64,000 nt of DNA from Actinomycetota bacterium. GTDB lineage: Bacteria; Actinomycetota; Humimicrobiia; Humimicrobiales; Humimicrobiaceae. The stretch covers positions 6,579-70,578 of the forward strand of contig JAQVDY010000007.1 in NCBI GenBank assembly GCA_028698215.1, written 5' to 3'. The notes below the pieces were generated by a model. The model did no database searches, was not told where the DNA came from, and worked only from the letters and a program-made list of their open reading frames with translations. The position numbers and the translations under genes were made by a program. Positions 9,583 to 49,103 of this stretch are shown in pieces. Each line of letters opens with the position of its first letter. Position 1 is the first letter of the stretch.

Positions 9583-9616
9583 GGGTATTTGCAGTAAGAG
9601 ACGGGAAAGGAAAGTT

Positions 9617-17781: not shown

Positions 17782-17815
17782 TAAATATATTAAACTTAAA
17801 TTTTAAGGAGTGGGC

Positions 17816-23342: not shown

Positions 23343-25031
23343 ATGAATGAATATATCCAGTGTAAAAATATAAATATTGATGCAGACAAACTGGCGGAAA
23401 AAATTTTGGATTACCAGTACCAAATACAGAAGGATCTGGGTGGGCGCTATTCTGCAAGGGACCGGCAGCTCTGTCTCAGGGATATCAAATACCACCTTAA
23501 TTACCTATGCAGCTCTGTTGCTTTTGACAGCATAACCTTATTTGAGGATTATATAGATTGGGCAAGGGTGTTGCTGGGGGGATACGGTCTTCCCCCCAGG
23601 GACCTGGCAAATAACCTGGAAAGCATGAAAAAGGTGCTTTCTGAAGAGCTGCCTGCTGATATCAGGGACAAGGTTGCCTATTTTCTGCAGCAGGGCCAAA
23701 AAAGGATAAAAACCAATACCGGTAAGGTAGATTCTTTTTTAAGCACCAAGCAGCAGCACAGCCGGATTTTAAACCAGTATTTCCAAGCCCTTTTAGCCTG
23801 GAAAAAAGAGGAAGCGCTATTTGTGGTTATGGAAGCCTTAAAAAAGCAAGTTAGCATAAAGGATCTTTACTTGAAAGTATTCCAGCCAGCCCAATATGAG
23901 CTGGGAAGGCTGTGGCAGAGGGGGGAAATAGATGTAGCGGGGGAGCATTATGGTACTGCCCTTACCCAATTTATAATGTCACAGCTCTATCCCCGCATAC
24001 TTTCTACTGCTAAAACAGGAAGGGTGTTTATAGGCACCTGTATTAACGGTGAGCAGCATGAAATAGGCATGAGGATGGTTACTGATTTACTGGAATATGA
24101 AGGCTGGGACACTTACTATCTGGGTGCAAATACCCCTGCCGGCAGTATTTTAGGGAAAATTAAAACCCTTAAACCTGATTTGGTAGGGATATCAGCTACC
24201 ATGCTGTTTAATGTGGGAAGCGTATATGAACTGATTGTCCAGATAAGGGATAGTAACCGTAATGTAAAGATAATAGTGGGTGGTTATCCCTTCCGGCAGG
24301 ACAAGGATTTGTGGAAATCCATTGGGGCTGATGGCTGTGCTGCGGATCTAGATAAAGTGGTAGAGATATGCAGCCGACTGGTCAAAGGGCCCCGCCTGGC
24401 ATCTTTTACCGCTCCTAAAATGGAATTTAGTTCAAACCAGACTAAAATTGAAGATTACCCCAGCCCCCACAGCAAGTTGTTTGCCCTCAACAATGAACTT
24501 ATAAACATGCAGAGACAGCTAAGCAAGAAAAACATACAGCTGGATCAGCTAAACCAAAAACTTGAATTGATTTCCATGCAGGATTCCCTGACCCAACTCT
24601 ATAACCGCCGTTATTTTTACCAATCCATAAAGCAGGAAATAAACAGGGCTGACCGGATAGGATACAGGCTGGTTCTGGTATTGGCAGATTTGAATAATTT
24701 CAAACAAATAAATGATGTTCTGGGACATAAGGCAGGGGATAACCTGTTGATAGGGCTGGCCCATATTTTGCAGCAAAATTTAAGAAAAGGGCTGGATACT
24801 GCCTATCGCTGGGGAGGGGACGAATTTTTGCTTACCATGTCTAATACAAGCAAAAGCCAAGCCTGGCAGGTTATGGCCAGGATTGATGAAAAATTAAGAA
24901 AAAAGAATAGTACCGTGTCCCTAGCCTGGGGGATAATAGAGATTAATAGCAAAAACTTGGATAAAATAGATGAGTTTATCAAAAAAGCTGATGGAATGAT
25001 GTATGAGCATAAGAAAAAGGTTAAGGGCTAG
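23343..25031 (+). CDS. CarH-like cobalamin-binding (B12-binding_2 plus B12-binding) sensor fused to a GGDEF diguanylate cyclase
   Basis: 562 aa; W-x9-EH (WQRGEIDVAGEHY) and DxHxxG-type (GEQHEIGMRMV) cobalamin motifs, coiled-coil linker, intact RWGGDEF active site. Confidence 0.8.
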   Translation: MNEYIQCKNINIDADKLAEKILDYQYQIQKDLGGRYSARDRQLCLRDIKYHLNYLCSSVAFDSITLFEDYIDWARVLLGGYGLPPRDLANNLESMKKVLSEELPADIRDKVAYFLQQGQKRIKTNTGKVDSFLSTKQQHSRILNQYFQALLAWKKEEALFVVMEALKKQVSIKDLYLKVFQPAQYELGRLWQRGEIDVAGEHYGTALTQFIMSQLYPRILSTAKTGRVFIGTCINGEQHEIGMRMVTDLLEYEGWDTYYLGANTPAGSILGKIKTLKPDLVGISATMLFNVGSVYELIVQIRDSNRNVKIIVGGYPFRQDKDLWKSIGADGCAADLDKVVEICSRLVKGPRLASFTAPKMEFSSNQTKIEDYPSPHSKLFALNNELINMQRQLSKKNIQLDQLNQKLELISMQDSLTQLYNRRYFYQSIKQEINRADRIGYRLVLVLADLNNFKQINDVLGHKAGDNLLIGLAHILQQNLRKGLDTAYRWGGDEFLLTMSNTSKSQAWQVMARIDEKLRKKNSTVSLAWGIIEINSKNLDKIDEFIKKADGMMYEHKKKVKG

Positions 25032-25893: not shown

Positions 25894-25998
25894 GCAAAAA
25901 GCATTGCTTGACAATTATACTACCCATTATATTATTAAGTTGTATAATATTATTGATATAATATTATATTATTTACTTATAATAATTATAAAAATAAG

Positions 25999-28297: not shown

Positions 28298-29482
28298 ATG
28301 GGCCTAAAAAACATGGCAGGTTCTTTTTTATGGATATTATTATGCCTGTATGGCGTATTGATGCTTAGTATAGTTATATTCGGAATAGGGGTAAAACCGG
28401 CTTACAGCAATGAAGCGGTTAGCCTGTTTGGAATACCATTTTTACAGAAAGCTGCCGGCTATAGCGCTATAAAGTGGCTACCGTATGTCCTGGATAAAAT
28501 AATTTGGGCCGGATTCGTTTTTATTTTTTTACGGATAGCCAGGTCAGGCAGCTACACATCCATAAAAGCTATTATTTTTCTGGCATTATTTCTGATAATA
28601 ATGTATGCAGTTACTTTCCCCCTGAGCTGGTGGCGGGGATTTCTGATTGAAAAAAGTTTCGGCTTATCCAGCCAATCCCTGGGGGGCTGGCTTCTGGATT
28701 ACGGCAAGTCAGTTATGGTATCCTTTCTACTCTCCTTTGCCGGTTACTGCGGCCTGTATTTTTTAATAGGCCATTTTCCCCGCAACTGGTGGCTGCTGGC
28801 CTGGGCAGCTTTACTGTTGTTTTCACTAATATCAACCATACTATATCCACTGGTAATAGATCCCCTCTTTTATAATTTTGAGCCTCTCCAAGACCAGGAA
28901 ATGGTAGCCAGCATAAAAGAGATGGGACATAAGGCGGGAATAAATATAGACCAGGTGCTGGTAGCTGATGCCAGCAGGCGGACGGTAAAAGCCAATGCTT
29001 ACTTTACAGGACTGGGCAGGACCAGGAGAATTGTTATTTATGACAATTTGCTTAACCGGTTTAGCTCTGACCAGGCATTGGCGGTGGTAGCCCATGAGAT
29101 AGGGCACTGGAAGTCGGGACACCTGCTTAAATGGTTACTTATTTCTGTGCCCGCCTTCTTTTTGTTTATGGCGGCGGCCTTTGGGATTACCAGGAGCCTG
29201 GGCGGAAAGGTATTGACCCAGGTAATGATAGTGATTGTACTATATGTTTTACTGTCTACAGTAGCCCTGCCGGTTCAGAACCTAATTTCCAGGAACTTTG
29301 AAAGGCAGGCTGACCAGGTAGCGCTGGAGCTTACCGGCAACCCCCAGGCCCTAGTGGACCTGTATGTAAATTTAGCCCAAACCAATTACTCTAATGTAGA
29401 GCCCCACCCCTTAACCAGGAGCTTGTGGTATAGCCATCCTCCCATCATGGAGAGGATAAGAGTGGCCAGAAACTATTATTGA
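28298..29482 (+). CDS. M48-family (Ste24/HtpX-like) zinc metalloprotease, membrane-bound
   Basis: 394 aa; multiple TM helices, HEIGHW(x)SGH zinc motif. Confidence 0.8.
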   Translation: MGLKNMAGSFLWILLCLYGVLMLSIVIFGIGVKPAYSNEAVSLFGIPFLQKAAGYSAIKWLPYVLDKIIWAGFVFIFLRIARSGSYTSIKAIIFLALFLIIMYAVTFPLSWWRGFLIEKSFGLSSQSLGGWLLDYGKSVMVSFLLSFAGYCGLYFLIGHFPRNWWLLAWAALLLFSLISTILYPLVIDPLFYNFEPLQDQEMVASIKEMGHKAGINIDQVLVADASRRTVKANAYFTGLGRTRRIVIYDNLLNRFSSDQALAVVAHEIGHWKSGHLLKWLLISVPAFFLFMAAAFGITRSLGGKVLTQVMIVIVLYVLLSTVALPVQNLISRNFERQADQVALELTGNPQALVDLYVNLAQTNYSNVEPHPLTRSLWYSHPPIMERIRVARNYY

Positions 29483-30126
29483 TTATGCCGGTTATGGTGT
29501 TTCTGGCCGTATCGGTTTTGGTACCCGCTGTTAATGTTTTCAATATCTTGCAGGATCTGGTCCTGATTTTCAGCCGACAGGCATCCGTATTGCTTGCACT
29601 GGCCGTATTGTTGTTCAATATTTTCCATAACCTGGTCAGCCAGCTGCTGGGGAGTATCTTCGGAGGCCATAACCTGCCTGGCTTCTTCTATTCTCTTGTT
29701 CAGCATATTAAGATGAAGTTTTGGCTTCTGGGAAGAAGGATAAATAAATAGCTGTACCTCTTCCACCGTTCTTTTAACCGGATAAAGCGCCTGGCCCGGT
29801 ATGCTGCCCTGGGATGCATAGGCGGTACCGGCAAAAGAGAAAGAGACAACTATGAAGGCAGTAAGAAAAGCAATGGCCGGTTTTAGCCATCCTGCCCTTA
29901 TCCTTTTTGGCGGAACCTGGCTTAGTGCTTGCTGCAGGGCGGATTTTAGAAAATTTTCATCAGGCTGCAATGATTTTAAGCCTTGAACCTGCATGGCGCT
30001 TTTAAGGTATGGTTCCAGCTCTTCCCGGCAGCAGCTGTATTTTTCCAGGCAATAAGAAATACTGTATCCTTTCTTTAAAAGGACCAGGCATTTTTCCGTT
30101 ATATTTTGTATTTGTTTTTTATTCAT
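29476..30126 (-). CDS. Anti-sigma factor (single TM, Cys-containing N-terminal domain)
   Basis: 216 aa; 8-nt overlap with the upstream ECF sigma gene; N-terminal Cys cluster (C..C...CC), central TM helix, extracytoplasmic C-terminus. Confidence 0.55.
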   Translation of the reverse strand: MNKKQIQNITEKCLVLLKKGYSISYCLEKYSCCREELEPYLKSAMQVQGLKSLQPDENFLKSALQQALSQVPPKRIRAGWLKPAIAFLTAFIVVSFSFAGTAYASQGSIPGQALYPVKRTVEEVQLFIYPSSQKPKLHLNMLNKRIEEARQVMASEDTPQQLADQVMENIEQQYGQCKQYGCLSAENQDQILQDIENINSGYQNRYGQKHHNRHNQ

Positions 30127-30679
30127 TTTCCTGTATATATTTCCTTAAAGCATCCAGGGCCCTGAATACTATGCCCCTTAATGTATTCTGCCTTTTACCG
30201 GTTATCCTGGATATCAGCTTATAGTCAAAGTCTTCTACCAGCTTTAGTACCACTACTTCCCTCTGCAGGTCGGTGAGCCTGGACAAAGCTTTAAATAATT
30301 TTTCATTTTTTATGCCCAGTTCCAGGAAAAGGTAAGTGCTGTTATCAATTAAACCATTGTGTTTACCAGGTTCCTGTCCTTTATCCGGAGAGGGATTTCT
30401 GGTTTCTCTATCCTGTTTACGGTAGTAATCGATAAGAAGATTCCTGGCTACCTTGTAAAGCCAGGCAAAAAATTGCCGGCTGTTAAATTTTTTGCTGTTC
30501 AGGTTGCTGTAAGCCCTTAAGGCCAGCTGGCTGCATATATCTTCTGCCTCCTGCCTGTTTCCGGTACGATAATAACAATACCGGAACAGCGGTGGCATAA
30601 ACTGGCGGTAAATCTTTTCAAACCAGATCCGGTCCCCGCTTTTTTTATACTGTCTAAGGTATAAGTCTAAATTTTCCAA
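30119..30679 (-). CDS. ECF-subfamily sigma-70 factor
   Basis: 186 aa; region 2 (FRYCYYRTGNRQEAEDI) and region 4 HTH (LTDLQREVVVLKLVEDFDYKLISRITG). Confidence 0.8.
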   Translation of the reverse strand: MENLDLYLRQYKKSGDRIWFEKIYRQFMPPLFRYCYYRTGNRQEAEDICSQLALRAYSNLNSKKFNSRQFFAWLYKVARNLLIDYYRKQDRETRNPSPDKGQEPGKHNGLIDNSTYLFLELGIKNEKLFKALSRLTDLQREVVVLKLVEDFDYKLISRITGKRQNTLRGIVFRALDALRKYIQENE

Positions 30680-30724
30680 TTATTGTTTCCAGTTGGTTTT
30701 TACCAGATATTATACCTTATTTGC

Positions 30725-31033
30725 TCATATCTTTTCACAGCCATTATTCTTTAACGTCTTAAAGGACCGTTTAAAGTAACAAACTATGGTACTTCCATTT
30801 AACATCAGGTGAAAAACGACCATAGCTATAAGCAATATGGAGCTCCAGTCATGGAACAATTTCAAGGAACTTCTAGAGGCCAGATCCAGTATACTGGCTC
30901 CAGCCCCCTGTCCGGCCCGGGTACCGGGACCGGATGGGGTAACCATCAATACTATTCCGGTTAGGGCGCTGATCAGCATAAAGAACAGCAAAAAAATATC
31001 TATGATTATTTTTAACTTAATTTTTAGTCTCAA
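30725..31033 (-). CDS. Small membrane protein with bis-His TM helix (DUF4405-like)
   Basis: 102 aa; TTG start overlapping the upstream stop; two TM helices, H-x13-H in helix 2; VLMVT motif shared with the 33478 ORF. Confidence 0.45.
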   Translation of the reverse strand: MRLKIKLKIIIDIFLLFFMLISALTGIVLMVTPSGPGTRAGQGAGASILDLASRSSLKLFHDWSSILLIAMVVFHLMLNGSTIVCYFKRSFKTLKNNGCEKI

Positions 31034-31365
31034 TTATTTCTGCCTCGTCTGCCCTGGCCTAACTGGTTAGTCCTTAATTGCTGGCACTGCTGCTGCAGCT
31101 GCGGGCATTGCCCATCTTCTGACAATCTTTCCTGGTTTCTAAGCTGCTGGCACTCTCCATCGCAATCCTGGTTATCCTGATTGTATTGATACCTGTACTC
31201 ATGGCGTTCCTGCTGGCATAAAGCCTTATCCTGGCCACAAATACAATCGGAATAAGCGGCCTGGTTTTGTCCTTGTTTCTCATTATTGTAGGCATATATA
31301 AAGCCTGCGGAACTGAGAAGCACCACTGCCGCTATAGCCACTGCTATTACTGCTTTCTTAATCAT
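31030..31365 (-). CDS. Small secreted Cys- and Gln-rich protein
   Basis: 111 aa; signal peptide MIKKAVIAVAIAAVVLLSSAGFIYA, 8 Cys and many Gln, C-terminal GRRGRNN; AAGGAA RBS. Confidence 0.5.
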   Translation of the reverse strand: MIKKAVIAVAIAAVVLLSSAGFIYAYNNEKQGQNQAAYSDCICGQDKALCQQERHEYRYQYNQDNQDCDGECQQLRNQERLSEDGQCPQLQQQCQQLRTNQLGQGRRGRNN

Positions 31366-31518: not shown

Positions 31519-32811
31519 TTGATAAAAAAATTAATGGTGGGAATATGCACTATACTTTTTTTAGCTGTAGTTAGCTGCAGCCCCCAGGCAGCGGAACCAG
31601 TAACCACGCCAATAGAAGAGGATTCTCCATCTTTGCCGGAAACTGAAGTGGAAAACAGGGTAATATATATGGAGATTGGTACCGATGTCCAATCCAATCA
31701 TTTTGAACACAGGGTGGCCAACATTTACAGCATAAGGGTAGATGGCTCGGGCCAGGAATTGATATTTTCGGATATGGATTATCCCTGGGACTTGGGTAGG
31801 GTATATAGTGTTTCCCCCGACGGCAATAAGATAGCAGTATCCTTCTTTGAGGGTGGGAGGGGAGCTTATAGCAGTTTATCCATTATTGATATGAACACGG
31901 GCCAGGTGGAGACAGCGGCAGAATTTGATTATACCCAGTCTGAAAATGTTGATCTTATTAAGCAGCTGTATGGAGAGCCGGTATGGTCTTTAGACAGTAC
32001 TACGCTGGCGTATGAGGTAATAAATGTGCCTACAGAACCTGAACCAGGAAGATATTATACCGACTGGGTACAGCTGTATGTTTTGGGCTCGGGCCAGGCA
32101 GAGCAGGTTATTCCAAGGATAGGGGGAATGTGCGCCACTAAACTGACTTTTATGCAGCCGGTACTTTTTCTGCCGGATGGGCAACTGGCAGTGGTCTACC
32201 ATGCTTACTACAGTAATGAGAAAGACCCTTATGACATCTATTCTATAAATGAGGAAGTGTATCTGATGGATTTGGAAACGGCGGATATAAGCATGATTAT
32301 AAATGCAAAAGATTTTGAGCAGGTAGAAGCAGTGCAAAGTTTTTCCAATTTTAAATGGTGGGATGGCAAAATAGTATTTGAACTTCTGGGAGACTTTGAA
32401 GAAGATGGCGATGTATATGCCTATCTTCCTGCTGACCGCAAGATAGAAGCGGTTACTTCGGATCCTGATTTAAGGGAGCAGCAGCCGGACAGCAGCAAAG
32501 ATTTGCTGTGCTATGTAGGGGTTCCCAGGTATGGAACCATTTCCTATCAAAACCCAGCCGGCGATATTTATATCAGGCAGGGCAGTGATTTGAGCAAGGT
32601 AAGTGAAAACAGCAAATCAAGCCAGCCCCTATTTTCACCAGATGGAAATTTCATAGCTTATGTTGAATATGAATATGATCAAAATTATGAATACATTAAA
32701 GGCAGGACAATCAAATCCTATAATGTAGGAACAGGCCAAACCGAAGAAGCAGTATTTTCCGAACAGATAATAGAACTGGCAGGCTGGGCTGTTCTGGAAC
32801 AGGAGAAATAA
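31519..32811 (+). CDS. Lipoprotein with PD40/TolB-like beta-propeller repeats
   Basis: 430 aa; lipobox AVVSC; recurring SPDGN(K/F)IA motifs typical of PD40 repeats. Confidence 0.5.
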   Translation: MIKKLMVGICTILFLAVVSCSPQAAEPVTTPIEEDSPSLPETEVENRVIYMEIGTDVQSNHFEHRVANIYSIRVDGSGQELIFSDMDYPWDLGRVYSVSPDGNKIAVSFFEGGRGAYSSLSIIDMNTGQVETAAEFDYTQSENVDLIKQLYGEPVWSLDSTTLAYEVINVPTEPEPGRYYTDWVQLYVLGSGQAEQVIPRIGGMCATKLTFMQPVLFLPDGQLAVVYHAYYSNEKDPYDIYSINEEVYLMDLETADISMIINAKDFEQVEAVQSFSNFKWWDGKIVFELLGDFEEDGDVYAYLPADRKIEAVTSDPDLREQQPDSSKDLLCYVGVPRYGTISYQNPAGDIYIRQGSDLSKVSENSKSSQPLFSPDGNFIAYVEYEYDQNYEYIKGRTIKSYNVGTGQTEEAVFSEQIIELAGWAVLEQEK

Positions 32812-33485
32812 TGAAATTGATTCTTAAAGAGAAGACCCAAAACGCAAAAGATGTATTTTCCTTTAAATTTAACCCCCAGCAGCATTTCGACTGGGTGCCG
32901 GGGCAATATGTGCAGGTAGTGCTCCCCCATAAAAATCCTGATAACAGGGGAATAAAAAGGTTTTTTTCCATTGCGTCTGCTCCGCAGGAGAAAATCATTA
33001 TGATAACCACCAGGATAATGGAGGAAGGGGGCAGTACTTTTAAGGCCAGGCTGATGGAACTAAAACCAGGCGCTTTTATGGAAGCTTCGAAACCCCGGGG
33101 TGATTTTAAGGTAGCTGATGCTGATAAAAGGCAGGTAATGATTGCAGGAGGAATAGGTATTACTCCCTTCAGGTCAATTTTACTGGATTTGGACTACAGG
33201 CATAAATTAAAAGATATAATCTTGCTTTATGCCTCCAGGGATAATCCCCCCATATTTTATGAAGAATTAGAAAAACTTGATAAAAAAAATAAGGGTTTTA
33301 AACTCATAATACCGGAAGTTACCATAGATTCCGGGGTAATAGCCCGGGAGATAGGAGACTTAAAAGATACCCTCTATATGGTGTCAGGCCCTGCAGGAAT
33401 GGTAAAAGCGCTAGGGCAGCAGCTGGAAGGGCTGGGGGTAGAACCCCAAAACATCAAAAAAGATTTCTTCCCCGGTTATGATTAA
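32811..33485 (+). CDS. Fre-like NAD(P)H:flavin reductase (FNR fold)
   Basis: 224 aa; RFFSIASAP (compare E. coli Fre RPFSMASTP), MIAGGIGITPFRSIL NAD-binding motif. Confidence 0.7.
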   Translation: MKLILKEKTQNAKDVFSFKFNPQQHFDWVPGQYVQVVLPHKNPDNRGIKRFFSIASAPQEKIIMITTRIMEEGGSTFKARLMELKPGAFMEASKPRGDFKVADADKRQVMIAGGIGITPFRSILLDLDYRHKLKDIILLYASRDNPPIFYEELEKLDKKNKGFKLIIPEVTIDSGVIAREIGDLKDTLYMVSGPAGMVKALGQQLEGLGVEPQNIKKDFFPGYD

Positions 33486-33792
33486 AAAGGAAAGATTTTT
33501 AAAAAAACTGAACCGTATACTGGGATATTTGCTAATACCGGCATTTGTGGTGCTTATGGTTACCGGCTACCGTCAGCTGGGTTATTTTACTTTTTTTACC
33601 CGGGGCACGGCTAACCTTTTACACCAGGTTTATATCAATATAGTGTTTTTAATATTGTTTACCATGCATGCAGGCCTCAGCCTAAGGGCTTCTTTGGCCC
33701 GGAATAAGGTTAAGGGGAAAGCAGTAGACCTGTTGCTATTAGTCTGCGGCCTGCTGTTTATATTGGCTTTTTCTTATTTTGCCTTATCATGA
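33478..33792 (+). CDS. Small membrane protein with bis-His TM helix (DUF4405-like)
   Basis: 104 aa; 3 TM helices, H-x14-H within a helix. Confidence 0.45.
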   Translation: MIKKERFLKKLNRILGYLLIPAFVVLMVTGYRQLGYFTFFTRGTANLLHQVYINIVFLILFTMHAGLSLRASLARNKVKGKAVDLLLLVCGLLFILAFSYFALS

Positions 33793-34967
33793 ATAAAAAA
33801 ATTTTCTACATTTTAGCGGTAGTGGCAGCGGCAGGATTGTTAGCCCTGCTCATATATTCCATAGCACAGGACAGGCAGGAACAGGCCAGCCTGGATCAAG
33901 GCTTTAATTTTGAGGATATAGATATAAGCCAGATAGGAAATGACAGCGAGTTTGCCTCAGCATTACCGGAGTACCGAATTCTTTTTAACGGTTTGGTAAA
34001 AGAAGAAGTGGAACTGAATTTGGTACAGATCATTGAAAAATATTTGCATCTGGCAGAAACCAGGATAGTTCATGGAGTGCGTTCCGATGGGGAGCAAGTG
34101 GATATAGAATACACCGGCTTGGACCTGCGGTATTTGCTTGAAGATATAGAAATCCTGGATCAGGCCCAAAATATTATTGTTTATGGTACCGACCTTTATG
34201 CTGCCAATTTTACCTTAGAAGAGCTTAAGCAGGATATGATGCTGGTTTGGAAAAAGGAAGGCCAGTATATGGTTCCCAGCCAGGATGGTGTATTAAAAAT
34301 AGTTCAGCATAACGGGCCTACTTTTAAATGGGTCAAGAACCCGGTACTATTTAATATTATCCCAGAGCTGCAGGAAATGGCGGATGAAAGCGGGCAGCTG
34401 GATCCAGGGATTTTAGAGTTTGCGTCTGAGCAGACCATGTTTGTGCTTACCATAGGAATGGTGCCCCAGATAGACAGTAATGATTGGTCCCTAGCTATTG
34501 AAGGTTTGGTGGAAAAAGAGATGAGCCTAGATTACGGTCAACTTAAAAATATGCCCCAAGAGTCGGTATATGCTACCCTGGAGACCATCTCCAACCCCCA
34601 GGGAGGGCCCTTAATTGGAAATGCAGTTTGGTCGGGAGTCCCCCTGGCCTATATAATGGATATGGTTCAATACAGCCCCCAGACACAGGAAGTAGTATTT
34701 TACTGCACCGATGGTTATTCTACCAGCATAACCCTAGAGGAAGCCCTGCAGCCTGGAGTAATGCTGGCTTATGCCATGAATGGCCGGGATTTAAGTGCTG
34801 AACATGGTTTTCCGGTAAGGGCTGTAGTTCCATCCAAATACGGAATGAAATGGGCAAAATGGATTGAGAGGATAGAATTTGTAGATTATGATTATAAAGG
34901 GTATTGGGAAAGCAGGGGGTGGTCTGACTATGCAGGCAGGGATACCCCTGAGCAAAGATTTGAGTAA
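33789..34967 (+). CDS. Molybdopterin oxidoreductase of the sulfite-oxidase/MsrP(YedY) fold, membrane-anchored, with a degenerate internal domain duplication
   Basis: 392 aa; N-terminal TM anchor with no twin-Arg signal. C-terminal HGFPVRAVVPSKYGMKWAKWIERIEF matches the sulfite-oxidase-family signature. Residues about 60-195 align to residues about 225-390. Confidence 0.6.
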   Translation: MNKKIFYILAVVAAAGLLALLIYSIAQDRQEQASLDQGFNFEDIDISQIGNDSEFASALPEYRILFNGLVKEEVELNLVQIIEKYLHLAETRIVHGVRSDGEQVDIEYTGLDLRYLLEDIEILDQAQNIIVYGTDLYAANFTLEELKQDMMLVWKKEGQYMVPSQDGVLKIVQHNGPTFKWVKNPVLFNIIPELQEMADESGQLDPGILEFASEQTMFVLTIGMVPQIDSNDWSLAIEGLVEKEMSLDYGQLKNMPQESVYATLETISNPQGGPLIGNAVWSGVPLAYIMDMVQYSPQTQEVVFYCTDGYSTSITLEEALQPGVMLAYAMNGRDLSAEHGFPVRAVVPSKYGMKWAKWIERIEFVDYDYKGYWESRGWSDYAGRDTPEQRFE

Positions 34968-34976
34968 GGAGAAAGC

Positions 34977-35168
34977 GTGATTTATACCTACATACTGCCT
35001 TTGGGCATAACCGCCTACCTGTCTGTGCTGGTGGCTTTAGCCGGCTTGATTGGTTTTCGGTTAAAAAAAAGGAAAATCTATTACAAGATACACCGTATAG
35101 CAGGCATAGTAGCCATTGCAGCAGCTACCATACATGGAATTTTAGCCTTAATCTTTTACCTGGGTTAA
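34977..35168 (+). CDS. Small membrane protein with bis-His TM helix (DUF4405-like)
   Basis: 63 aa; GTG start 6 nt after AAGGAGAAAGC; two TM helices, H-x13-H (KIHRIAGIVAIAAATIHG). Confidence 0.45.
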   Translation: MIYTYILPLGITAYLSVLVALAGLIGFRLKKRKIYYKIHRIAGIVAIAAATIHGILALIFYLG

Positions 35169-35752
35169 TTTAAGCTGACAGAAACCGAAGATCTTTTGGA
35201 ATGCTTACTGTCAAAATCCGGGCTGTCGCTAACGGCTAAGATCATCTTGTAGGTTTGTCCCGGGATAAGCTCCTGGTCATATTCATCGCCTGAATCAAGT
35301 AAAATAACGAATTCAAAAGCATCGGGGCTGCCTGCATGTTCCTCTATGTCGCTGGTGCCGCCCAGTTCTGTATCCGGCTGATGGTCAAAGTTGGAAACAC
35401 CAAAATCATCCCTGATTAAGGCCTGGTCCTCTGAAAATGCCATCATGATTATGTTAGCGTCTTTCATGGCAAAACTGGGATTAAAACCAACTGCCGCCCA
35501 TCCAGGTCCTAAGCCGGTTATCCCCATGTATAGCAGGGTATTGTCCTGAGACCAGTAGACAGCAAGCCCGGTGGCGCTGTCCTCTACCAAAAACTGGTAT
35601 TCATTTTCCTCCACAACCCCGTTGGTATTTATGTTTTGTACCGTATATCCATCAGTGCCTGAGGATTGGACCTGGATCTCAGGCTGGCTGCAAGCAGATA
35701 ATACCAGCACAGAGGTTATTACCAGTATAGTTAAAGCAATATTTTTTTTCAC
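35165..35752 (-). CDS. Lipoprotein, DOMON-like (putative heme-binding extracytoplasmic domain)
   Basis: 195 aa; GTG start after GGAGG; lipobox LSAC; GPGWAAVGFNPSFAMKDANIIMMAF resembles the DOMON core. Confidence 0.4.
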   Translation of the reverse strand: MKKNIALTILVITSVLVLSACSQPEIQVQSSGTDGYTVQNINTNGVVEENEYQFLVEDSATGLAVYWSQDNTLLYMGITGLGPGWAAVGFNPSFAMKDANIIMMAFSEDQALIRDDFGVSNFDHQPDTELGGTSDIEEHAGSPDAFEFVILLDSGDEYDQELIPGQTYKMILAVSDSPDFDSKHSKRSSVSVSLN

Positions 35753-35825
35753 CTATCCTCCTATTATTGTTTAGTTCTAAATTAGCATAATTTTAATTTA
35801 GTTGAAATTAACTGATTATCAGAAA

Positions 35826-35838
35826 TATAATGATTATA
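35826..35838. promoter_or_regulatory. PerR/Fur-type operator-like palindrome TATAATGATTATA
   Basis: 6-1-6 perfect inverted repeat matching the Firmicutes PerR box TTATAATNATTATAA; lies in the divergent region between the DOMON lipoprotein and the prx-dfx-ftn-fprA genes. Confidence 0.4.
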
Positions 35839-35914
35839 ATTGACACAATGAAGGTCCTCCTATATTATTAGTATTAATTACTAATTAAGATAAATTATTA
35901 ACAAAGGAGGAGTA

Positions 35915-36556
35915 ATGGAAGACAGGATGCCCTTATTAGGAGAAATATTTCCCGAAATGGAAGTAGTAACCACCCATGGAAAGCTTAAGCTGCCTATTGA
36001 TTATGCTGGAAAATGGTTTATTTTGTTTAGCCATCCCGCTGATTTTACACCGGTATGCACTACTGAATTCGTTGCTTTCCAGAAAAGGTATGACCAGTTC
36101 AGGAAATTTAATTGCGAATTAATCGGATTAAGCATAGACCAGGTTTTTTCCCATATTAAATGGGTGCAGTGGATAAAAGAAAATCTTGATGTTGAAATCA
36201 AGTTTCCAATAATTGCTGATGATGCCGGTGCGGTGTCTCAAAAACTGGGTTTTATCCATCCGGGTAAAGGGACCAATACAGTTAGGGCGGTAATGATAGT
36301 AGACCCTAATGCCAGGATAAGGGCAATGCTCTATTACCCCCAGGAGTTAGGCAGAAATATGGATGAAATTTTAAGGATGATAGAAGCATTCCAGGTAGCA
36401 GAGAAAAACGGAGTGGCCATGCCTGCCAACTGGCCTAATAATGAAATAATAAAAGATGAAGTTATAATACCGCCCCCTACCGATGAAAGGGCAATAGCAG
36501 ATAGGATGAAAAAATATGATTGCTTTGACTGGTGGTTCTGTCATAAAAAATTATAG
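35915..36556 (+). CDS. Peroxiredoxin (Prx6/1-Cys type)
   Basis: 213 aa; FTPVCTTE peroxidatic Cys motif; AAAGGAGGAG RBS. Confidence 0.85.
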
Positions 36557-36565
36557 GAGGTAAAT

Positions 36566-36940
36566 ATGGCTGAAAAAATGCAAATTTATAAATGTGAAGT
36601 ATGCGGCAACATAGTAGAAGTGCTTCATGGGGGAAAGGGAGAGCTGGTATGCTGTAATGAGCCCATGAAACTGTTTAAGGAAAATACGGTAGATGCAGCT
36701 AAGGAAAAACATGTTCCCGTTATAAAAAGAGATGGTGATATGGTAAAAGTCAAGGTAGGGAGCGTGGACCATCCCATGGAAGAAAAACATTATATTGAAT
36801 GGATTCAGATAGTGGATGGAGATGTGGCGTACCGTAAGTTTCTTAAGCCGGGTGATGCGCCGGAGGCAGAATTTTCCGTAAGCAGTAAAGATATTTACGC
36901 AAGGGAGTATTGTAATATTCATGGATTGTGGAAAGGATAA
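36566..36940 (+). CDS. dfx: Desulfoferrodoxin (2Fe superoxide reductase)
   Basis: 124 aa; N-terminal desulforedoxin CxxC...CC (YKCEVCGN....CCNEPM) and C-terminal SOR domain (KHVPV, H..WI). Confidence 0.85.
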
Positions 36941-36943
36941 AAA

Positions 36944-37456
36944 ATGATAAGCAAAAAAATGCAAACAGCTATAAATGAACAGATAAATGCGGAGATGTAT
37001 TCCTCTTACCTTTATCTGGCCATGAGTGCCTATTTTGAAAATACAGACCTTACCGGTTTTGCTAACTGGATGAGGATACAGGCCCAGGAAGAACTGGATC
37101 ATGCTATGAAGTTTTTTGATTTTGTAAACGAAAGGGGAGGCCAGGTGGTACTGAAGGACATAAAGGCTTCTGCTACTGCCTGGAAGTCACCGGTAGAGGT
37201 AATGGAAGCAGTATATGCCCACGAGCAAAAGGTTACCGGGCTTATAAATGACCTGGTTGATTTGGCCATAAAGGAAAAAGACCATGCTTCTAATAATTTT
37301 TTACAGTGGTTTGTGGCAGAGCAGGTGGAAGAAGAGGCTTCAGCTGAAGCTATCATAAAAAAGCTTAAGCTGGTAAGCGGTACCGGTAATGGATTGTTTA
37401 TGATAGACCAGGAGTTGGCCAAGAGGGTTTATACTCCCCCGGCTGCTGCTGAATAA
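36944..37456 (+). CDS. Non-heme ferritin
   Basis: 170 aa; [22 protein letters not shown] and EELDHAMKF ferroxidase-centre motifs. Confidence 0.8.
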
Positions 37457-37492
37457 TAATGGTTTTAAAAAAAATATAAAAAGTTATATATT

Positions 37493-37526
37493 ATAATCGC
37501 ACCTTTAAAGGTGCGATTATATTTTG
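37493..37526 (+). terminator. Hairpin (10-bp perfect stem AATCGCACC/GGTGCGATT, loop TTTAAA) plus a T-rich tail between the ferritin and fprA genes: partial terminator or attenuator
   Basis: Read directly; located in the 90-bp intergenic gap. Confidence 0.35.
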
Positions 37527-37546
37527 CAAGCTAACAGGAGGCAATA

Positions 37547-38722
37547 ATGGCAGAACAAATAAAGAATAATGTATTCTATGTGGGAGCCAAGGACCCTGAC
37601 CGGGAGTTGTTTGATGAGCTCATTCCTTTACCGGATGGTACTACCTATAATTCCTACTTGGTAAAGGGCAGCGAAAAAGTGGCCTTAATTGATACCGTAG
37701 ACCCTTCTAAGGTGGATGAGCTATGGGCGCATTTGGAGCAATTGAATGTTAATAATATAGATTATATTATTGCCAATCATGCCGAGCAGGACCATTCGGG
37801 ATCCATACCCCAGGTGTTAGAAAAGTTCCCCCGGGCCGTAGTGGTAACTAATGAAAAGTGCAAGGGCATGCTGATAGATTTGCTGCATATAGCAGATGAT
37901 AAGTTTCTGGTAGTAGAGGATGGCTCATCTCTATACCTGGGCGATAAGAACCTGGAATTTATAATAGCTCCCTGGGTCCACTGGCCTGAAACCATGTTCA
38001 CTTACCTTAAAGAGGACAAGATACTGTTTACCTGTGATTATCTGGGCTCACATTTTTCCTTTGAAAATCTTTATGTAGAGGACCAGGAAGCTACCTATAG
38101 GAATGCCAAAAGATATTATGCTGAAATTATGATGCCTTTTGCCAATCTGGCTAAAAAACATCTGGATAAAGTCCAGGGGCTGGATATTGAAATTATAGCT
38201 CCCAGCCATGGCCAGGTGTATAAGGATTATGGCTTTATATTGGATGCCTATAAAGACTGGACTTCGGATGGGGTCAAAAATGAGGTAGTTTTAGCCTATG
38301 TTTCCATGCATGGGAGTACCAAGGAAATGGTTGATTATTTTAAATCAGCACTGGAAGCTAAAAAGGTAAAGGTAAAAACTTTTAACCTTACTCATACAGA
38401 TACTGGTGAACTGGCCATGGCTTTGGTGGATGCGGCTACTGTGGTTTTAGCTACTCCTACCGTGCTCTCAGGGCCCCACCCGGCAGCGGTGTATGCTGCT
38501 TACCTGGTCAAAGCCTTAAGGCCCAAGACCAGGTATTTAGGCCTTATTGGTTCCTATGGCTGGGGAGGAAAGACGGTAGAAGTAATTTCTGACCTGGTTT
38601 CCACCCTAAAAGCAGAGATACTGGAGCCGGTAATAGTGAAAGGCCTGCCGGACCAACAGGCCTTGGCTGGGTTGGATAAACTGGCTGCCGGCATAGCGGA
38701 AAAACACTCTCAGCTAGATTAA
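37547..38722 (+). CDS. Flavodiiron protein (FprA / rubredoxin:oxygen oxidoreductase type)
   Basis: 391 aa; metallo-beta-lactamase-like diiron domain (HxExDH: NHAEQDHSG) plus C-terminal flavodoxin domain. Confidence 0.85.
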   Translation: MAEQIKNNVFYVGAKDPDRELFDELIPLPDGTTYNSYLVKGSEKVALIDTVDPSKVDELWAHLEQLNVNNIDYIIANHAEQDHSGSIPQVLEKFPRAVVVTNEKCKGMLIDLLHIADDKFLVVEDGSSLYLGDKNLEFIIAPWVHWPETMFTYLKEDKILFTCDYLGSHFSFENLYVEDQEATYRNAKRYYAEIMMPFANLAKKHLDKVQGLDIEIIAPSHGQVYKDYGFILDAYKDWTSDGVKNEVVLAYVSMHGSTKEMVDYFKSALEAKKVKVKTFNLTHTDTGELAMALVDAATVVLATPTVLSGPHPAAVYAAYLVKALRPKTRYLGLIGSYGWGGKTVEVISDLVSTLKAEILEPVIVKGLPDQQALAGLDKLAAGIAEKHSQLD

Positions 38723-42227: not shown

Positions 42228-42575
42228 ATGATAATTAAGAGAAGATCAGAGTTCAAGCCGGAAATTATGAATGATAACCAGATAAGAGGGGTAAAATTTT
42301 ATCCTTTGATTACTGCCCAGGACGGGGCCCCTAATTTTGCCATGAGGGTATTTGAAGTAGAGCCCGGCGGCTATAGTCCCCGTCACTCCCATAAATGGGA
42401 ACATGAAATCTATGTAATAGAAGGCAGCGGCTATGCCGTCAAAGAAAATGGGGTTATACCTATTGGTAAAGATGACTGCATTTTGGTAGAGCCTTCAGAG
42501 CTTCACCAAATAAAAGCGGGGGAAGAGGGCATAACTTTTATATGTGTAGTTCCCCACGAAGGCCAGCCTTCCTAA
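42228..42575 (+). CDS. Cupin-domain protein
   Basis: Start ATG 42228 after AAAAGGGG; two-motif cupin (PRHSHKWEHEIYVIEG ... VEP.ELHQI). Confidence 0.6.
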   Translation: MIIKRRSEFKPEIMNDNQIRGVKFYPLITAQDGAPNFAMRVFEVEPGGYSPRHSHKWEHEIYVIEGSGYAVKENGVIPIGKDDCILVEPSELHQIKAGEEGITFICVVPHEGQPS

Positions 42576-42586
42576 AAACAATAAAT

Positions 42587-43801
42587 ATGAATAGAAAATA
42601 TTTAACTATAGCGGTAATGCTGCTGGCTATAGTGCTTACAGCTTGTGCTCCTGCTAAAGAGTTTGGGCCACTTACCGTATGCAGCAGCATAGACAGCCAG
42701 ACTTACCAGCCTTTGGATAAAAAAGATGAGTTTGAAATAGAGACCAGGCAGGTGTATGCAGCAATAGAAGTGGCAAATGTACCTTCTGACAGTATTTGGA
42801 CCTTTAAATGGATAAATCAACAGGATGGCCAAATACTATCTACCAGCTCAGGCCAGTATATGGAAGATTCCAATTTAAGGGTAAGCGGTTATTTTGCCAG
42901 CGTGTTTAGCGCGGCTGAAGAAAGCCAGGCTATAGCTTTACCTGGAACCTACCGGGTGGAGTATTATCATGACCAAAAACTAATCGACAGTAAAATCTTC
43001 ACCGTCATGCAGCCGGAAATTAAGGTGGAGCGGTTAATTTTGGGCAGTCAGATAGGCGTTGACGGGCTTCCCATGGAAAACAGGGGCAAGTTTTATAATA
43101 ATGAAGATATGTATTTGTACTTAAAGCTTAACTATTTGGCGGACGGAACCGTTATGGAAGTTACCTGGTTAAGGCAGCAGGAAGTTATAGCGGAAACAGG
43201 GCAAATATCCAGGGAGAATAATTTAGCCCCTGCCGGCAGCCTGTTTGAATTAAAGGCAGATTCAGGTCTGGTTCCTGGTGGGTACAGGGTGGATATTGCC
43301 CTGGATGGCCTCCGGGTACAAAGCCTGGAGTTTGAAGTGGTAAATAATCTGGAAAGCCTGCAGGATTACTTCAATGACCACTATGATTTTTCATTCAGCT
43401 ACCCCCAGTGGATGATGCCTAAAGAAAAAGAAGGTGAAAATTTTTACCTTATAAACTTATATCCCAGGGATCAAATCCAGGATATGGTAATGGGTGTATG
43501 GATTATTCCAGGCCGTATTGCTCCCCCAGAAGAAAATCTGGGCCAATTTGCGGATAACTTGGCCACCGGCAATATTGAAGAAGAATATAAAATAGAGCTG
43601 GCATCAGAACAGGATTCAAACCTGGGTTATGCCTATGTCTATAAGGATAATGAAGGTCAAAAGTGGGAGCTTAGGTTGGACTTTAAACCAAGCGGCCAAC
43701 ACATCTTTATGGTAACCGGCTTAGCCCGGGAGAATTATGTCCAGGATATGGAGGCTATATTTAAAGGCATGATGGATTCCTTAAAATTTCCCATTGAGTA
43801 A
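42587..43801 (+). CDS. Hypothetical lipoprotein with two internal repeats
   Basis: Start ATG 42587 (MNRKYLTIAVMLLAIVLTAC lipobox); the track start 42542 would overlap the cupin gene by 34 nt; two approx 110-aa repeats (W..QQ....G.YRV). Confidence 0.5.
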   Translation: MNRKYLTIAVMLLAIVLTACAPAKEFGPLTVCSSIDSQTYQPLDKKDEFEIETRQVYAAIEVANVPSDSIWTFKWINQQDGQILSTSSGQYMEDSNLRVSGYFASVFSAAEESQAIALPGTYRVEYYHDQKLIDSKIFTVMQPEIKVERLILGSQIGVDGLPMENRGKFYNNEDMYLYLKLNYLADGTVMEVTWLRQQEVIAETGQISRENNLAPAGSLFELKADSGLVPGGYRVDIALDGLRVQSLEFEVVNNLESLQDYFNDHYDFSFSYPQWMMPKEKEGENFYLINLYPRDQIQDMVMGVWIIPGRIAPPEENLGQFADNLATGNIEEEYKIELASEQDSNLGYAYVYKDNEGQKWELRLDFKPSGQHIFMVTGLARENYVQDMEAIFKGMMDSLKFPIE

Positions 43802-43901: not shown

Positions 43902-44909
43902 TTGTTTTTGGGGTTTAAAAAGCTGAAAGTTCTAATATTGGTTATAGCAGCTCTGTTGGTTTTACCCACTTTTAGCTGTAATCTTAAAACCTATCAGAAA
44001 TTTGAACAGACCCGCGAATTAATGGGTACACTGGTAAGCATAACTGTTTACTCTTACGACCAGCAGGCAGCTGAAGGAGCTATGGAGGCTGCTTTTGAAC
44101 GGATGGTAGAAATAGAAAGCATTGCCAACACCTATGATCCCAACAGCCAAATTTCAATACTTAACCAAGACGGTCATATCAAAAACCCTTCTCCTGTTCT
44201 ATCTGAACTGGTTACTGAATCTAAGAATTACTATCAGATTAGCCAGGGGGCTTTTGATATTACGGTGCAGCCTTTGCTGAATTTATGGGCATCTGGTTTG
44301 TGGCAGGAAACAGAACAGGTACAGCAACAGAAAATAAACCAGGCCATGGAAATGGTAGGTGCTAATTATATTATAGTGGAGCCGGACCGGATATATTTTG
44401 AAAAAGAGGGAATGGAAATTACTCTGGGAGGAATTGCCAAGGGTTATGCAGTAGATAAGGCAATGGAAGTGCTTAAATCAAAAGGCATCAGCTATGCTTT
44501 GGTAAATGCTGGCGGTGATATAATGACCAGCGGCAAAAAACCAGACGGCAGCTTCTGGACCATAGCCCTGGAAAATCCTGACAATAAGGAAGAGAGCATA
44601 GAGGTATTAAATGTGGCAGGGAAGGCAGTTACCACTTCCGGAAATTATGAAAGGTATTTTGACCCAGATAAGGAAGCCCACCACTTGATAGACCCCAGGA
44701 GTGGCTTTTCCGCCAACCAGTGCATAAGTGCCACTATTATTTCTACCAGCTGCATGGATGCTGATGCACTTTCTACTTCCATTTTTGTATTGGGTCCCCA
44801 GCAGGGCATTGATTTGGTTAATAGCCTAAATGGAGTTGAAGCCCTGATTATTGATAATGATAGAAATATATTCAGGTCTCAGGGCTTATCTAAATATGTT
44901 AATAATTAA
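43902..44909 (+). CDS. apbE: FAD:protein FMN transferase ApbE (lipoprotein)
   Basis: 335 aa; signal/lipobox FSC; ApbE motifs (FDITVQPL, GGIAKGYAVD, ALSTS); immediately upstream of rnfC. Confidence 0.8.
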   Translation: MFLGFKKLKVLILVIAALLVLPTFSCNLKTYQKFEQTRELMGTLVSITVYSYDQQAAEGAMEAAFERMVEIESIANTYDPNSQISILNQDGHIKNPSPVLSELVTESKNYYQISQGAFDITVQPLLNLWASGLWQETEQVQQQKINQAMEMVGANYIIVEPDRIYFEKEGMEITLGGIAKGYAVDKAMEVLKSKGISYALVNAGGDIMTSGKKPDGSFWTIALENPDNKEESIEVLNVAGKAVTTSGNYERYFDPDKEAHHLIDPRSGFSANQCISATIISTSCMDADALSTSIFVLGPQQGIDLVNSLNGVEALIIDNDRNIFRSQGLSKYVNN

Positions 44910-44912
44910 AGA

Positions 44913-46280: not shown

Positions 46281-46334
46281 GGTTTGAACTAAAAAAAAGT
46301 TTAATTTATACTTATAAAATCTAGGGACAAGAAG

Positions 46335-47285: not shown

Positions 47286-47289
47286 AGAG

Positions 47290-47820
47290 ATGTTTGATAA
47301 ATTTAAAAAAACAAAAATATATCCCATAATTTTACTGACAGTAGTGGTTTTGGTTTCAGTTACCTTATTGATGTTTTTAGGCAATATTACATCGGCAGTG
47401 GTGGAAGAAAGAAAAAAAGCGGAAATTGTAGAAATGTTGAAGCAGATTTACCCTGAAATGTCTGATTTCAGCCTGGAAAATGATATATATACGGTACTGG
47501 AAGGCCAGGAGGAAATAGGACATGCTTTTTTAGCTGAGGGCAATGGTTACGGAGGAGTAATCAGCATAATTGTAGGCCTGGATAAGGATTTGGCAGTTAA
47601 GGATATAAGCATAGTGAGCCAGACAGAAACGCCTGGATTGGGCAGCATGATAACTGAAGATTCTTTTACACAACAGTTTATCGGACTGTCTGCACAGGAA
47701 ATAGAGCTGTCTTCTTCGGGCGGCAAGATTGACTCCATTTCCGGAGCCACTATAAGCTCAGAAGCAGTTACTTCTGCTGTCAGGCAGGCAATGGAAGAAA
47801 AGATAAAGTCTATTAAGTAA
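47290..47820 (+). CDS. rnfG: Rnf complex subunit G
   Basis: Start placed at the internal ATG (MFDKFKK...) just after the rnfD stop; single TM plus FMN-binding domain with SGAT(I/Y)SS. Confidence 0.8.
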   Translation: MFDKFKKTKIYPIILLTVVVLVSVTLLMFLGNITSAVVEERKKAEIVEMLKQIYPEMSDFSLENDIYTVLEGQEEIGHAFLAEGNGYGGVISIIVGLDKDLAVKDISIVSQTETPGLGSMITEDSFTQQFIGLSAQEIELSSSGGKIDSISGATISSEAVTSAVRQAMEEKIKSIK

Positions 47821-47832
47821 GGATAAACGGTA

Positions 47833-49075: not shown

Positions 49076-49103
49076 ATTTTTTTATAAGGAGTTTTAATTA
49101 GAA

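Follow-up and report, generated by a model that had tools for sequence, protein, structure and literature searches.

A conserved gene pair from an Actinomycetota bacterium encoding a small membrane protein and a SUOX-fold protein with threonine or serine at the molybdenum-ligand position: a possible MsrPQ-like electron relay

Gene order and conservation of the locus

The locus analyzed here lies in a stretch of 64,000 nucleotides of contig JAQVDY010000007.1 (positions 6,579 to 70,578 of the forward strand; assembly GCA_028698215.1, Actinomycetota bacterium), which is called the window and whose own numbering is used throughout. Its five open reading frames (ORFs), designated A to E, encode an oxidoreductase of the FNR superfamily, a small membrane protein with three transmembrane (TM) helices, a membrane-anchored protein of the sulfite oxidase (SUOX) fold, a second small membrane protein with two TM helices and a DOMON lipoprotein, respectively (Table 1). 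An earlier note on this DNA had named these ORFs and read them as a split version of the periplasmic MsrPQ reductase system. All five were present in the ORF list of the window, and their conservation at the protein level in over 20 independent assemblies identified them as genes beyond chance. Two observations stand at the center of the present analysis: B and C form a conserved pair, and the C family keeps the pterin scaffold of SUOX enzymes with threonine or serine at the position of the molybdenum-ligand cysteine.

The genes of the plus strand are closely joined. The TAA of the propeller gene shares 1 nt with the ATG of A, with GGAG upstream; the overlap is 8 nt between A and B and 4 nt (ATGA) between B and C, and a gap of 9 nt separates C from D, which is preceded by an AGGAG ribosome-binding site. 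Therefore, given these stop/start overlaps and the tight packing, the plus-strand genes between 31519 and 35168 were assigned to one five-gene operon. The propeller lipoprotein encoded by its first gene is only a possible member of the system; elsewhere this gene was kept in one locus only, that of the closest relative (L001). E lies on the opposite strand, and its stop codon overlaps convergently with that of D (35165–35168). As no terminator was found between these two convergent genes, transcription from both sides should collide or give antisense RNA. The scans for promoters and terminators gave counts at the level of shuffled sequence and were uninformative.

Table 1. Features of the locus and of its immediate surroundings, in window coordinates (aa, amino acids).
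Feature	Position	Strand	Basis or remark
Propeller lipoprotein-like protein, 430 aa	31519..32811	+	ORF; weak PD40 match (PD40/TolB-type beta-propeller repeat); first operon gene
A, FNR-superfamily NAD(P)H oxidoreductase, soluble, 224 aa	32811..33485	+	PF00175 and PF00970; RFFSIAS
B, orphan 3-TM membrane protein, 104 aa	33478..33792	+	No Pfam domain; H49 and H64 on TM2
C, membrane-anchored two-domain SUOX-fold protein, 392 aa	33789..34967	+	PF00174
Thr266 codon (ACC) of C	34584..34586	+	Aligned with the Mo-coordinating Cys of characterized SUOX enzymes
D, 2-TM protein, 63 aa, GTG start	34977..35168	+	H39 and H53 on TM2 (H-x13-H)
E, DOMON-domain lipoprotein, 195 aa	35165..35752	-	PF03351; LSAC lipobox, Cys21
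Oxidative-stress operon: 1-Cys peroxiredoxin, desulfoferrodoxin, ferritin, flavodiiron protein	35915..38722	+	Pfam; followed by DUF2400 to 39494
Divergent upstream operon: Q-rich 111-aa protein, DUF4405 protein, ECF sigma factor, DUF5667 protein	29476..31365	-	Pfam/NCBIfam
ECF sigma factor	30119..30679	-	Part of the divergent upstream operon

To analyze the conservation of the locus, one genome per species was scanned, which gave 26 loci including that of the window, and these loci were searched with all the window proteins and their neighbors clustered. Nearly all of the loci came from metagenome-assembled genomes (MAGs) labeled ‘Actinomycetota’, including Candidatus Humimicrobiaceae and UBA1414, together with a few Spirochaetota. 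Full-length homologues of C numbered in the hundreds (44–68% identity), almost all of them unannotated or generically labeled. B was found directly upstream of C in 24 of the 25 other C-bearing loci, one of these being a distant member at about 40% identity. The B family consisted of 130 homologues, all of about 100 aa, lacking any Pfam domain or informative name and distributed in the same way as C; this number was reached with a profile, and a single-sequence search gave only three.

The other genes were variable. A was present in 5 of the 26 loci, and in the four besides the window it was always directly upstream of B. D was detected in about 10 genomes (about nine besides the window), always directly downstream of C, and E in seven loci (six besides the window), always converging on the module. 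Since B-C is constant and A, D and E are variable, the unit under selection appears to be B-C, and the other three genes are add-ons that hold a fixed position whenever they are present. The co-conservation expected of all five genes therefore failed, and holds for the core pair.

The oxidative-stress operon that the earlier note had pointed out as a neighbor was recurrent, with the prx/dfx/ftn/fprA genes downstream of the B-C module in 11 of the 26 loci (10 besides the window). Both A and the stress genes were confined to Actinomycetota loci; in the Spirochaetota loci L018 and L020, B-C stood alone and the surroundings were unrelated. Additionally, a Fur-family regulator gene sits between E and prx in three relatives. 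This PerR-like gene was located at 9132–9518 in L005, with equivalents in L006 and L007, and is not at that position in the window. A 47% identity match to the C-terminal SUOX domain only was also detected on an archaeal contig (L027, 2777–3361) from the MAG of a Candidatus Hydrothermarchaeaceae archaeon.

The SUOX-fold protein C and its molybdenum-ligand position

C matched PF00174 with 190.2 bits (cut-off 24; E-value 2.8e-56) in two stretches, and contains HGFPVRAVVPSKYGMKWAKWIERIEF. Its layout consists of a signal anchor (aa 5–23), a degenerate SUOX-like domain (aa ~60–196) and a full domain of the molybdenum cofactor (Moco) type (aa 223–373); the dimerization domain is absent. The N-terminal domain corresponds to the second, weak Oxidored_molyb stretch in Pfam, and when searched alone it gave no significant sequence match in the PDB. 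The AlphaFold2 (AF2) model of C showed two beta-rich domains, with a predicted local distance difference test score (pLDDT) of 84. When this model was used in Foldseek, the matches included SorA, YedY/MsrP, SoxC and sulfite oxidase (E-values from 1e-13 to 1e-9), and also PruR (about 5e-7), in this case through the shared SUOX core only.

The best sequence matches to the Moco-type domain of C were SUOX proteins that contain the ligand cysteine, with a lowest E-value of 1e-87 and 833 representatives under 1e-30. When compared with the curated NCBIfam models, C scored 68.5 bits against the MsrP model (NF003767; cut-off 207), 99.7 bits against SoxC (cut-off 420) and 92.5 bits against SorA (cut-off 600), and thus reached no curated SUOX equivalog cut-off. 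Judged by its sequence, C is not an MsrP orthologue.

The cysteine that coordinates Mo in these enzymes has no counterpart in C. In the alignment with SorA, the Mo-ligand Cys104 fell on Thr266 of C, within the motif ATLETISNPQGG, and the profile alignment to E. coli MsrP placed a threonine opposite Cys102. An exhaustive search of 1.8 billion proteins was then made, and its 150 best representatives were aligned to the C-family profile. Cysteine occupied the ligand column in 143 of the 143 non-family proteins (motif LEC[IA][SG]N), and threonine was found there only in the four full-length members of the C family. Among the 120 closest homologues of C, of which 119 could be scored, LETISN was present in 105 and LESISN in 14, and cysteine in none. 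The codon of Thr266, ACC, would need two substitutions to become a Cys codon.

The rest of the pterin scaffold was retained. Out of 43 positions conserved in at least 80% of the Cys-containing relatives, 41 were kept in the C family, including the elements HGxPxR, P348, YGxKxxKW, GNAxWxG and DxY, and the HGFPVR...KW motif of C is intact. The two positions lost were the Cys, changed to Thr/Ser, and Leu286, changed to Phe, and only seven positions were specific to the family (Q215, L220, Q257, T266, E318, K350, and Y381). An intact scaffold that admits only hydroxyl residues at the former Cys position does not look like a pseudo-enzyme in decay and points to a pocket under purifying selection; the restriction itself speaks for a ligand site kept by selection. 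The redox center of C may thus be a pterin cofactor with an oxygen-donor ligand from the protein, or an altered cofactor. Since the Mo-ligand Cys is missing throughout the family, C is only a putative molybdoenzyme, which may contain Mo or W, just a pterin, or no cofactor at all. The proposal that C is a Mo-enzyme of the MsrP type did not hold, as C differs from MsrP in having Thr/Ser for Cys102, no Tat (twin-arginine translocation) signal and an extra, degenerate SUOX-like domain at the N-terminus, and misses the MsrP cut-off. C306 was considered as a substitute Mo ligand and was rejected; it is invariant in the family, but the relatives often have Cys, Ala, Ser or Gly at this position, and no specific compensation could be recognized.

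The N-terminus of C consists of MNKK and one hydrophobic helix, with no twin-arginine (RR) motif. This motif is not conserved in the family either, since RR was present in 6 of 120 homologues. The mean charge of the regions flanking the helix, over the same number of homologues, was +2.85 before it and −1.85 after it, and this bias predicts a signal anchor of N-in orientation, the remainder of C being outside. Here the earlier note was borne out, as it had described a TM anchor in place of a Tat signal in the Mo-domain protein. No genes for Moco biosynthesis or for Tat were found among the scanned window ORFs of at least 150 aa, a scan that left out one ORF of 317 aa (62889–63842) and whose result holds for the window alone.

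Two groups of SUOX proteins are of use for comparison. The Cys-containing relatives with the motif LEC[IA][SG]N comprised Tat-signal proteins of about 340–360 aa, N-terminal multi-TM fusions of about 500–540 aa and two-domain lipoproteins (such as P0128). The two-domain layout of C is also seen in P0128 and P0129. Unlike C, all 143 of these relatives have the Mo-ligand Cys and many of them have RR motifs, and P0128 has no B-type neighbor. The other group is PruR, the only characterized Cys-less SUOX branch, which is non-catalytic, binds free pterins and regulates a partner protein; it is Sec-exported, has about 150 aa and a truncated hairpin/cleft, and carries a Trp (PW motif) at the Cys position (PMC11194511). 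PruR (PDB 7kos, 7kou, and 7rkb) resembles C in its Cys-less SUOX fold, its Sec-type export and a membrane partner encoded next door. By contrast, the partner of PruR is a c-di-GMP enzyme or a kinase, whereas that of C is a 3-TM protein with two histidines, and the domain of C is full length and carries LETISNPxGG instead of the truncated hairpin with PW. In the open-access literature, no description was found of a natural SUOX lineage with Thr/Ser for Cys or of the B family, and PruR alone turned up when naturally Cys-less catalytic SUOX enzymes were looked for.

Partner proteins and a possible transmembrane relay

The two histidines of B lie on one helix, TM2, with H49 invariant and H64 present in 30 of 31 sequences. 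Their spacing (H-x14-H) holds in a member of only 26% identity, and the TM1-TM2 loop, predicted to be outside, is also conserved (TGYRQxGxFTFxxRGxA). AF2 modeled B with confidence as a bundle of three helices (pLDDT 93). Both the N-terminus (charge bias +2.7) and the TM2-TM3 loop (+4.5) are predicted to be inside, which would put H49 close to the outer membrane face and H64 close to the inner one. D has two helices joined by a loop of charge +6.6, predicted to be inside, and its H39 and H53 were present in every complete sequence. The histidine pairs that had been noticed in these small membrane proteins are therefore conserved in both. B and D have what is expected of heme-b cytochromes, that is, conserved histidine pairs embedded in the membrane and placed to ligate heme; the binding itself is putative.

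The affiliation of these two proteins was also analyzed. B had no Pfam match, including DUF4405 (PF14358) and Ferric_reduct (PF01794), and the Foldseek search with its model gave nothing significant, the top of the list being dominated by SdhD, SdhC and FrdD, heme-b anchors of complex II with three helices, at TM-scores of 0.5–0.65. D scored 20 bits against Ferric_reduct (cut-off 28), with eight of eight members of its family below the threshold (best E-value 6.5e-5), and 17.7 bits against DUF4405 (cut-off 26.7). Both had been called DUF4405-like, a label that neither of them can keep; the true DUF4405 gene is the one upstream at 30725–31033 (47.3 bits against the cut-off of 26.7), which encodes a protein with two histidines in the arrangement H-x13-H.

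B and D were also considered as a split ferric-reductase domain (FRD) of the MsrQ/NOX type, a possibility that was rejected. With hhalign, H53 of D was placed on H91 of MsrQ and H64 of B on H164, with E-values of 0.05 to 0.6, which are not significant, and the Ferric_reduct scores were sub-threshold. The topology does not fit either, since the histidine helices of B and D are predicted from charge to be antiparallel, whereas TM3 and TM5 of the FRD, which carry its histidines, are parallel. MsrQ is a ferric-reductase-domain protein with six TM helices; it is a single protein of 211 aa, unlike B and D with three and two TM helices.

FezC and DUF4405 cytochromes b and the SdhC/SdhD anchors are, like B, short membrane proteins, and inter-subunit heme-b sites built from histidines have been shown for FezC and DUF4405. 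B differs from all of these in having no significant sequence or profile similarity to them and in its H-x14-H on one helix, and its heme binding is putative. Small DUF4405-like proteins with two histidines such as FezC bind heme b via homodimerization (PMC11334425). We infer that a dimer of B, or a B-D pair where D exists, may hold one heme near each face of the membrane.

A exceeded the cut-offs of PF00970 (24.7 bits; cut-off 21.1) and PF00175 (35.4 bits; cut-off 22), which places it in the FNR superfamily. It contains the motifs RFFSIAS (flavin) and GGIGITP (NAD(P)H) and a C-terminal FPGY, and the stretches RxFSIAS, GGIGITPF, SGPxGMVK and C-terminal FPGY were conserved across the five A orthologues. 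Its relatives in NCBIfam and the PDB were all weak and scattered over the superfamily, and included the flavohemoprotein reductase domain, the SpNOX dehydrogenase domain, NqrF, BenC, cytochrome b5 reductase and Fre. The close resemblance to Fre claimed for A was not confirmed: the score against the Fre model (NF005963) was 56.7 bits, far from the cut-off of 230, and Fre (1qfj) ranked about 11th among the PDB relatives (E-value 1.5e-8), behind NqrF, BenC and others. These model scores ruled A out as a Fre orthologue, and from its sequence it is best described as a generic FNR-family NAD(P)H flavoprotein. The accompanying claim, that the reductase is encoded in cis with the membrane protein, was correct, as A is translationally coupled to B; the 8-nt overlap and the fixed position in four other genomes tie A to B.

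Heme-binding DOMON domains typically carry conserved Met and His ligands. E scored 36.4 bits against PF03351 (DOMON; cut-off 32.7), and its candidate heme ligands are Met96 (in MKxAN), His124 and His184, the Met and the two His being invariant in seven sequences. E is therefore probably of the heme-binding DOMON type, with these residues as its likely ligands. Cytochrome b561-DOMON (CYBDOM) relays and the cytochrome domain of cellobiose dehydrogenase offer a comparison for a membrane b-heme carrier with an outer DOMON. In the present locus, too, an outer DOMON with conserved Met and His is encoded beside a putative membrane b-heme carrier. Unlike CYBDOM, E is a separate lipoprotein found in only seven of the 26 loci, and B and D are not members of the b561 family.

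The reading that we favor, tentatively, is that the locus encodes a modular transmembrane electron relay of the MsrPQ type, built around the B-C core. In this genome, the cytoplasmic A would oxidize NAD(P)H and pass the electrons to one or more b-type hemes on the histidine pairs of B, which would function as a homodimer or, in genomes that encode D, as a B-D pair, with one pair of histidines near the inner and one near the outer membrane face. The electrons would emerge outside and reduce C, with E as an extra outer relay where it is present, and C would in turn reduce an oxidized extracytoplasmic substrate. This substrate would most likely be an S- or N-oxide, for example oxidized methionine in envelope proteins of this anaerobe, a proposal made because of the MsrPQ analogy and the recurrent prx-dfx-ftn-fprA neighbor. 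A role in defense or repair is suggested by the same analogy and by the recurrent stress-gene neighborhood, which may partly be inherited synteny. The sequence data show the gene order with its coupled translation, the joint conservation of B and C, the conserved histidines, and in C the change from Cys to Thr/Ser in a retained scaffold and the missing twin-arginine motif; heme binding, topology, direction of the electrons, cofactor and substrate are predicted.

The likeness to MsrPQ (YedYZ) of E. coli and Fre comprises several features. In both cases, an outer SUOX-fold protein without the dimerization domain is encoded beside a histidine-bearing membrane protein and a cytoplasmic NAD(P)H flavoprotein of the FNR type is a plausible donor, and there is an association with oxidative-stress functions on both sides. 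The differences from Fre are that A is encoded in cis and is not its orthologue. By every criterion tested, and judging from the sequences, the cluster proteins are outside the MsrP, MsrQ, Fre and DUF4405 families and within the SUOX fold, the FNR superfamily and the DOMON family. Hence the proposal of an MsrPQ-like system stood in part: the list of components leading from the cytoplasm to the outside and its logic were retained, and the conventional membership of MsrP, MsrQ and Fre was not.

A number of points weigh against the relay. To our knowledge, no characterized SUOX enzyme does without the Cys, and extracytoplasmic Moco enzymes are exported folded by Tat, unlike C with its lack of a conserved RR. 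PruR, the only Cys-less branch to have been characterized, does not catalyze. For the related UBA1414 genomes, Fdh, AOR, Mod and a NarG that bears a canonical twin-arginine motif have been reported (PMC7325909); this makes Moco and Tat plausible in the lineage, and the lack of RR in C meaningful. The loop of Thr266 had a pLDDT below 50 in the AF2 model, and the likeness of B and D to known cytochromes is statistically insignificant. Moreover, the absence of A, D and E from most loci means that the full chain is not obligatory. Only related Actinomycetota show the synteny with the stress operon, and this gene order may have been inherited. Every cofactor of the relay is putative.

Four other explanations of the locus were considered. 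According to one of them, C is a non-catalytic SUOX-fold pseudo-enzyme comparable to PruR, which binds a free pterin or another small molecule outside, B-C is a pair for binding, sensing or scaffolding, and the redox genes are mere neighbors. The Mo-ligand Cys missing in all 119 scorable homologues, the Sec-type anchor, the clearly degenerate second SUOX-like domain and the match of the C model to PruR (E-value about 5e-7), itself a Sec-exported, Cys-less and pterin-binding SUOX fold, all agree with such a protein. It is, however, at odds with the full-length domain of C, in which 41 of 43 scaffold positions are kept, in contrast to the truncated hairpin/cleft with Trp of PruR, and with a Cys position that is held to Thr/Ser and does not drift. 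Furthermore, B has no output domain, its only strong conservation being the two membrane-embedded histidines and the outer loop, and the reductase is translationally coupled to it in five genomes. We consider this explanation unlikely, while taking it seriously. In another one, which seems improbable to us, the module is an outlet for respiratory or extracellular electron flow and does not serve repair or defense: electrons derived from quinol or NAD(P)H would be handed by a cytochrome b to an outer SUOX-fold or DOMON acceptor, which would reduce an oxidant of the environment, for example a metal, a humic substance, an S- or N-oxide or O2. Such an extracellular outlet would have the identical list of parts (FNR protein, membrane proteins with two histidines and outer DOMON), the absence of A from most loci is compatible with a quinol donor, and the host lineage is anaerobic with an Rnf-ApbE cluster nearby. 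The absence of a recognizable quinone site or energy-coupling subunit argues against it, as does the character of a small accessory module beside prx, dfx and fprA rather than respiratory genes, and those SUOX relatives that are known to work with a cytochrome b partner in the membrane (MsrPQ) act in repair.

The presence of A, D and E each in a minority of the loci and in differing combinations, and of the propeller gene in just one other locus, would be expected if only B-C were functional and A, D, E and the propeller lipoprotein were unrelated neighbors that share a transcript by chance. We regard this as quite improbable, because whenever they are present A precedes B, D follows C and E converges on the module, all three have features of the redox type, and the start/stop overlaps point to coupled translation. 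The conventional interpretation, in which C is a Cys-ligated molybdoenzyme of the MsrP or sulfite oxidase type and the cluster a split MsrPQ with Fre, could appeal to the strong PF00174 match, to the intact HGFPVR...KW and to the label ‘YedYZ catalytic subunit’ given to homologues by the Joint Genome Institute (JGI) annotators. It is contradicted at the defining residue, since the Cys is Thr/Ser in every family member, and it is highly improbable in other respects as well: C is far below the MsrP, SoxC and SorA cut-offs and has no Tat motif, B and D are below the Ferric_reduct (MsrQ) threshold with hhalign E-values of 0.05 to 0.6 to MsrQ, and A reached 56.7 bits where Fre requires 230.

A bolder claim may also be considered, which we hold to be rather unlikely: the C family would be the first natural SUOX-fold redox enzyme with a Mo/W-pterin center held by a Thr/Ser oxygen, placed outside the membrane without Tat and driven by a new type of minimal cytochrome b of three helices and two histidines (a dimer or paired with a two-helix subunit), in some genomes with a dedicated cytoplasmic FNR reductase. 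Serine plays the role of oxygen ligand in dimethyl sulfoxide (DMSO) reductases. Engineered Cys-to-Ser mutants of SUOX enzymes are nearly dead. At least 119 natural sequences keep the pterin scaffold and fix Thr/Ser at the Mo-ligand position, whose Cys is treated as invariant and has been called conserved in all SUOX proteins (PMC11194511), so that either an oxygen-ligated SUOX center can work or there is a second, independent route from an enzyme to a non-Mo protein besides PruR. With C located outside and no Tat signal, one has to ask in what way a pterin cofactor could be loaded outside the cytoplasm, if this occurs at all, and this placement, together with the change from Cys to Thr/Ser in an intact scaffold, would surprise specialists in molybdoenzymes. 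B would be among the smallest dedicated transmembrane electron carriers known, and the module is a candidate system for envelope protection in poorly known anaerobic subsurface Actinomycetota.

Surroundings of the locus in the window

The divergent operon upstream of the locus may regulate the cluster. It was kept in the upstream position in L001 and, in part, in L005 and L025. Its conservation is limited to the closest relatives. Its 111-aa protein is anchored and rich in Gln and Cys, and its DUF5667 protein is possibly an anti-sigma factor. Two boxes of the Fur/PerR 7-1-7 type were also observed. One of them, with one mismatch, is located in the divergent intergenic region between E and prx (35825–35839) and overlaps a strong −10 element; the other, a perfect match, lies at 25977–25991, just upstream of the gene for an M23 peptidase and downstream of one resembling ZnuA. 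A shared PerR/Fur operator was rejected as an explanation, since the number of boxes in the whole window was not above chance and the prx box was not conserved in relatives.

Downstream, at 8 kb from the locus, a flavin transferase gene, ApbE, precedes a complete cluster of the Rnf type (43902–49952, both included). The order of the cluster is RnfC, RnfD, an ORF (47230–47820) at the place of RnfG, a pair of Rnf-Nqr membrane subunits and an Fe-S protein similar to RnfB. Flavinylation by ApbE of Thr266 or of the ‘LGGT’ of the DOMON protein was discarded, because the motif [S/T]GA[S/T] was absent from every cluster protein. The 419-aa ORF just upstream of ApbE (42542–43801) had no Pfam match, and no Pfam family was assigned at an E-value of 1e-5 or lower to the ORFs at 18777–20291 (504 aa) and 4263–5105 (280 aa). 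The gene at 23343–25031 encodes two B12-binding domains and a GGDEF diguanylate cyclase, possibly a c-di-GMP signaling protein responsive to cobalamin or light. Finally, three split gene pairs for thiamine pyrophosphate (TPP) enzymes were detected within 14 kb at 5387–7187, 8614–10588 and 16957–18784, two of them transketolase N/C pairs and one an E1 alpha/beta pair, and these are located among sugar-phosphate genes for a class II aldolase, a transaldolase, an FGGY kinase and SurE.

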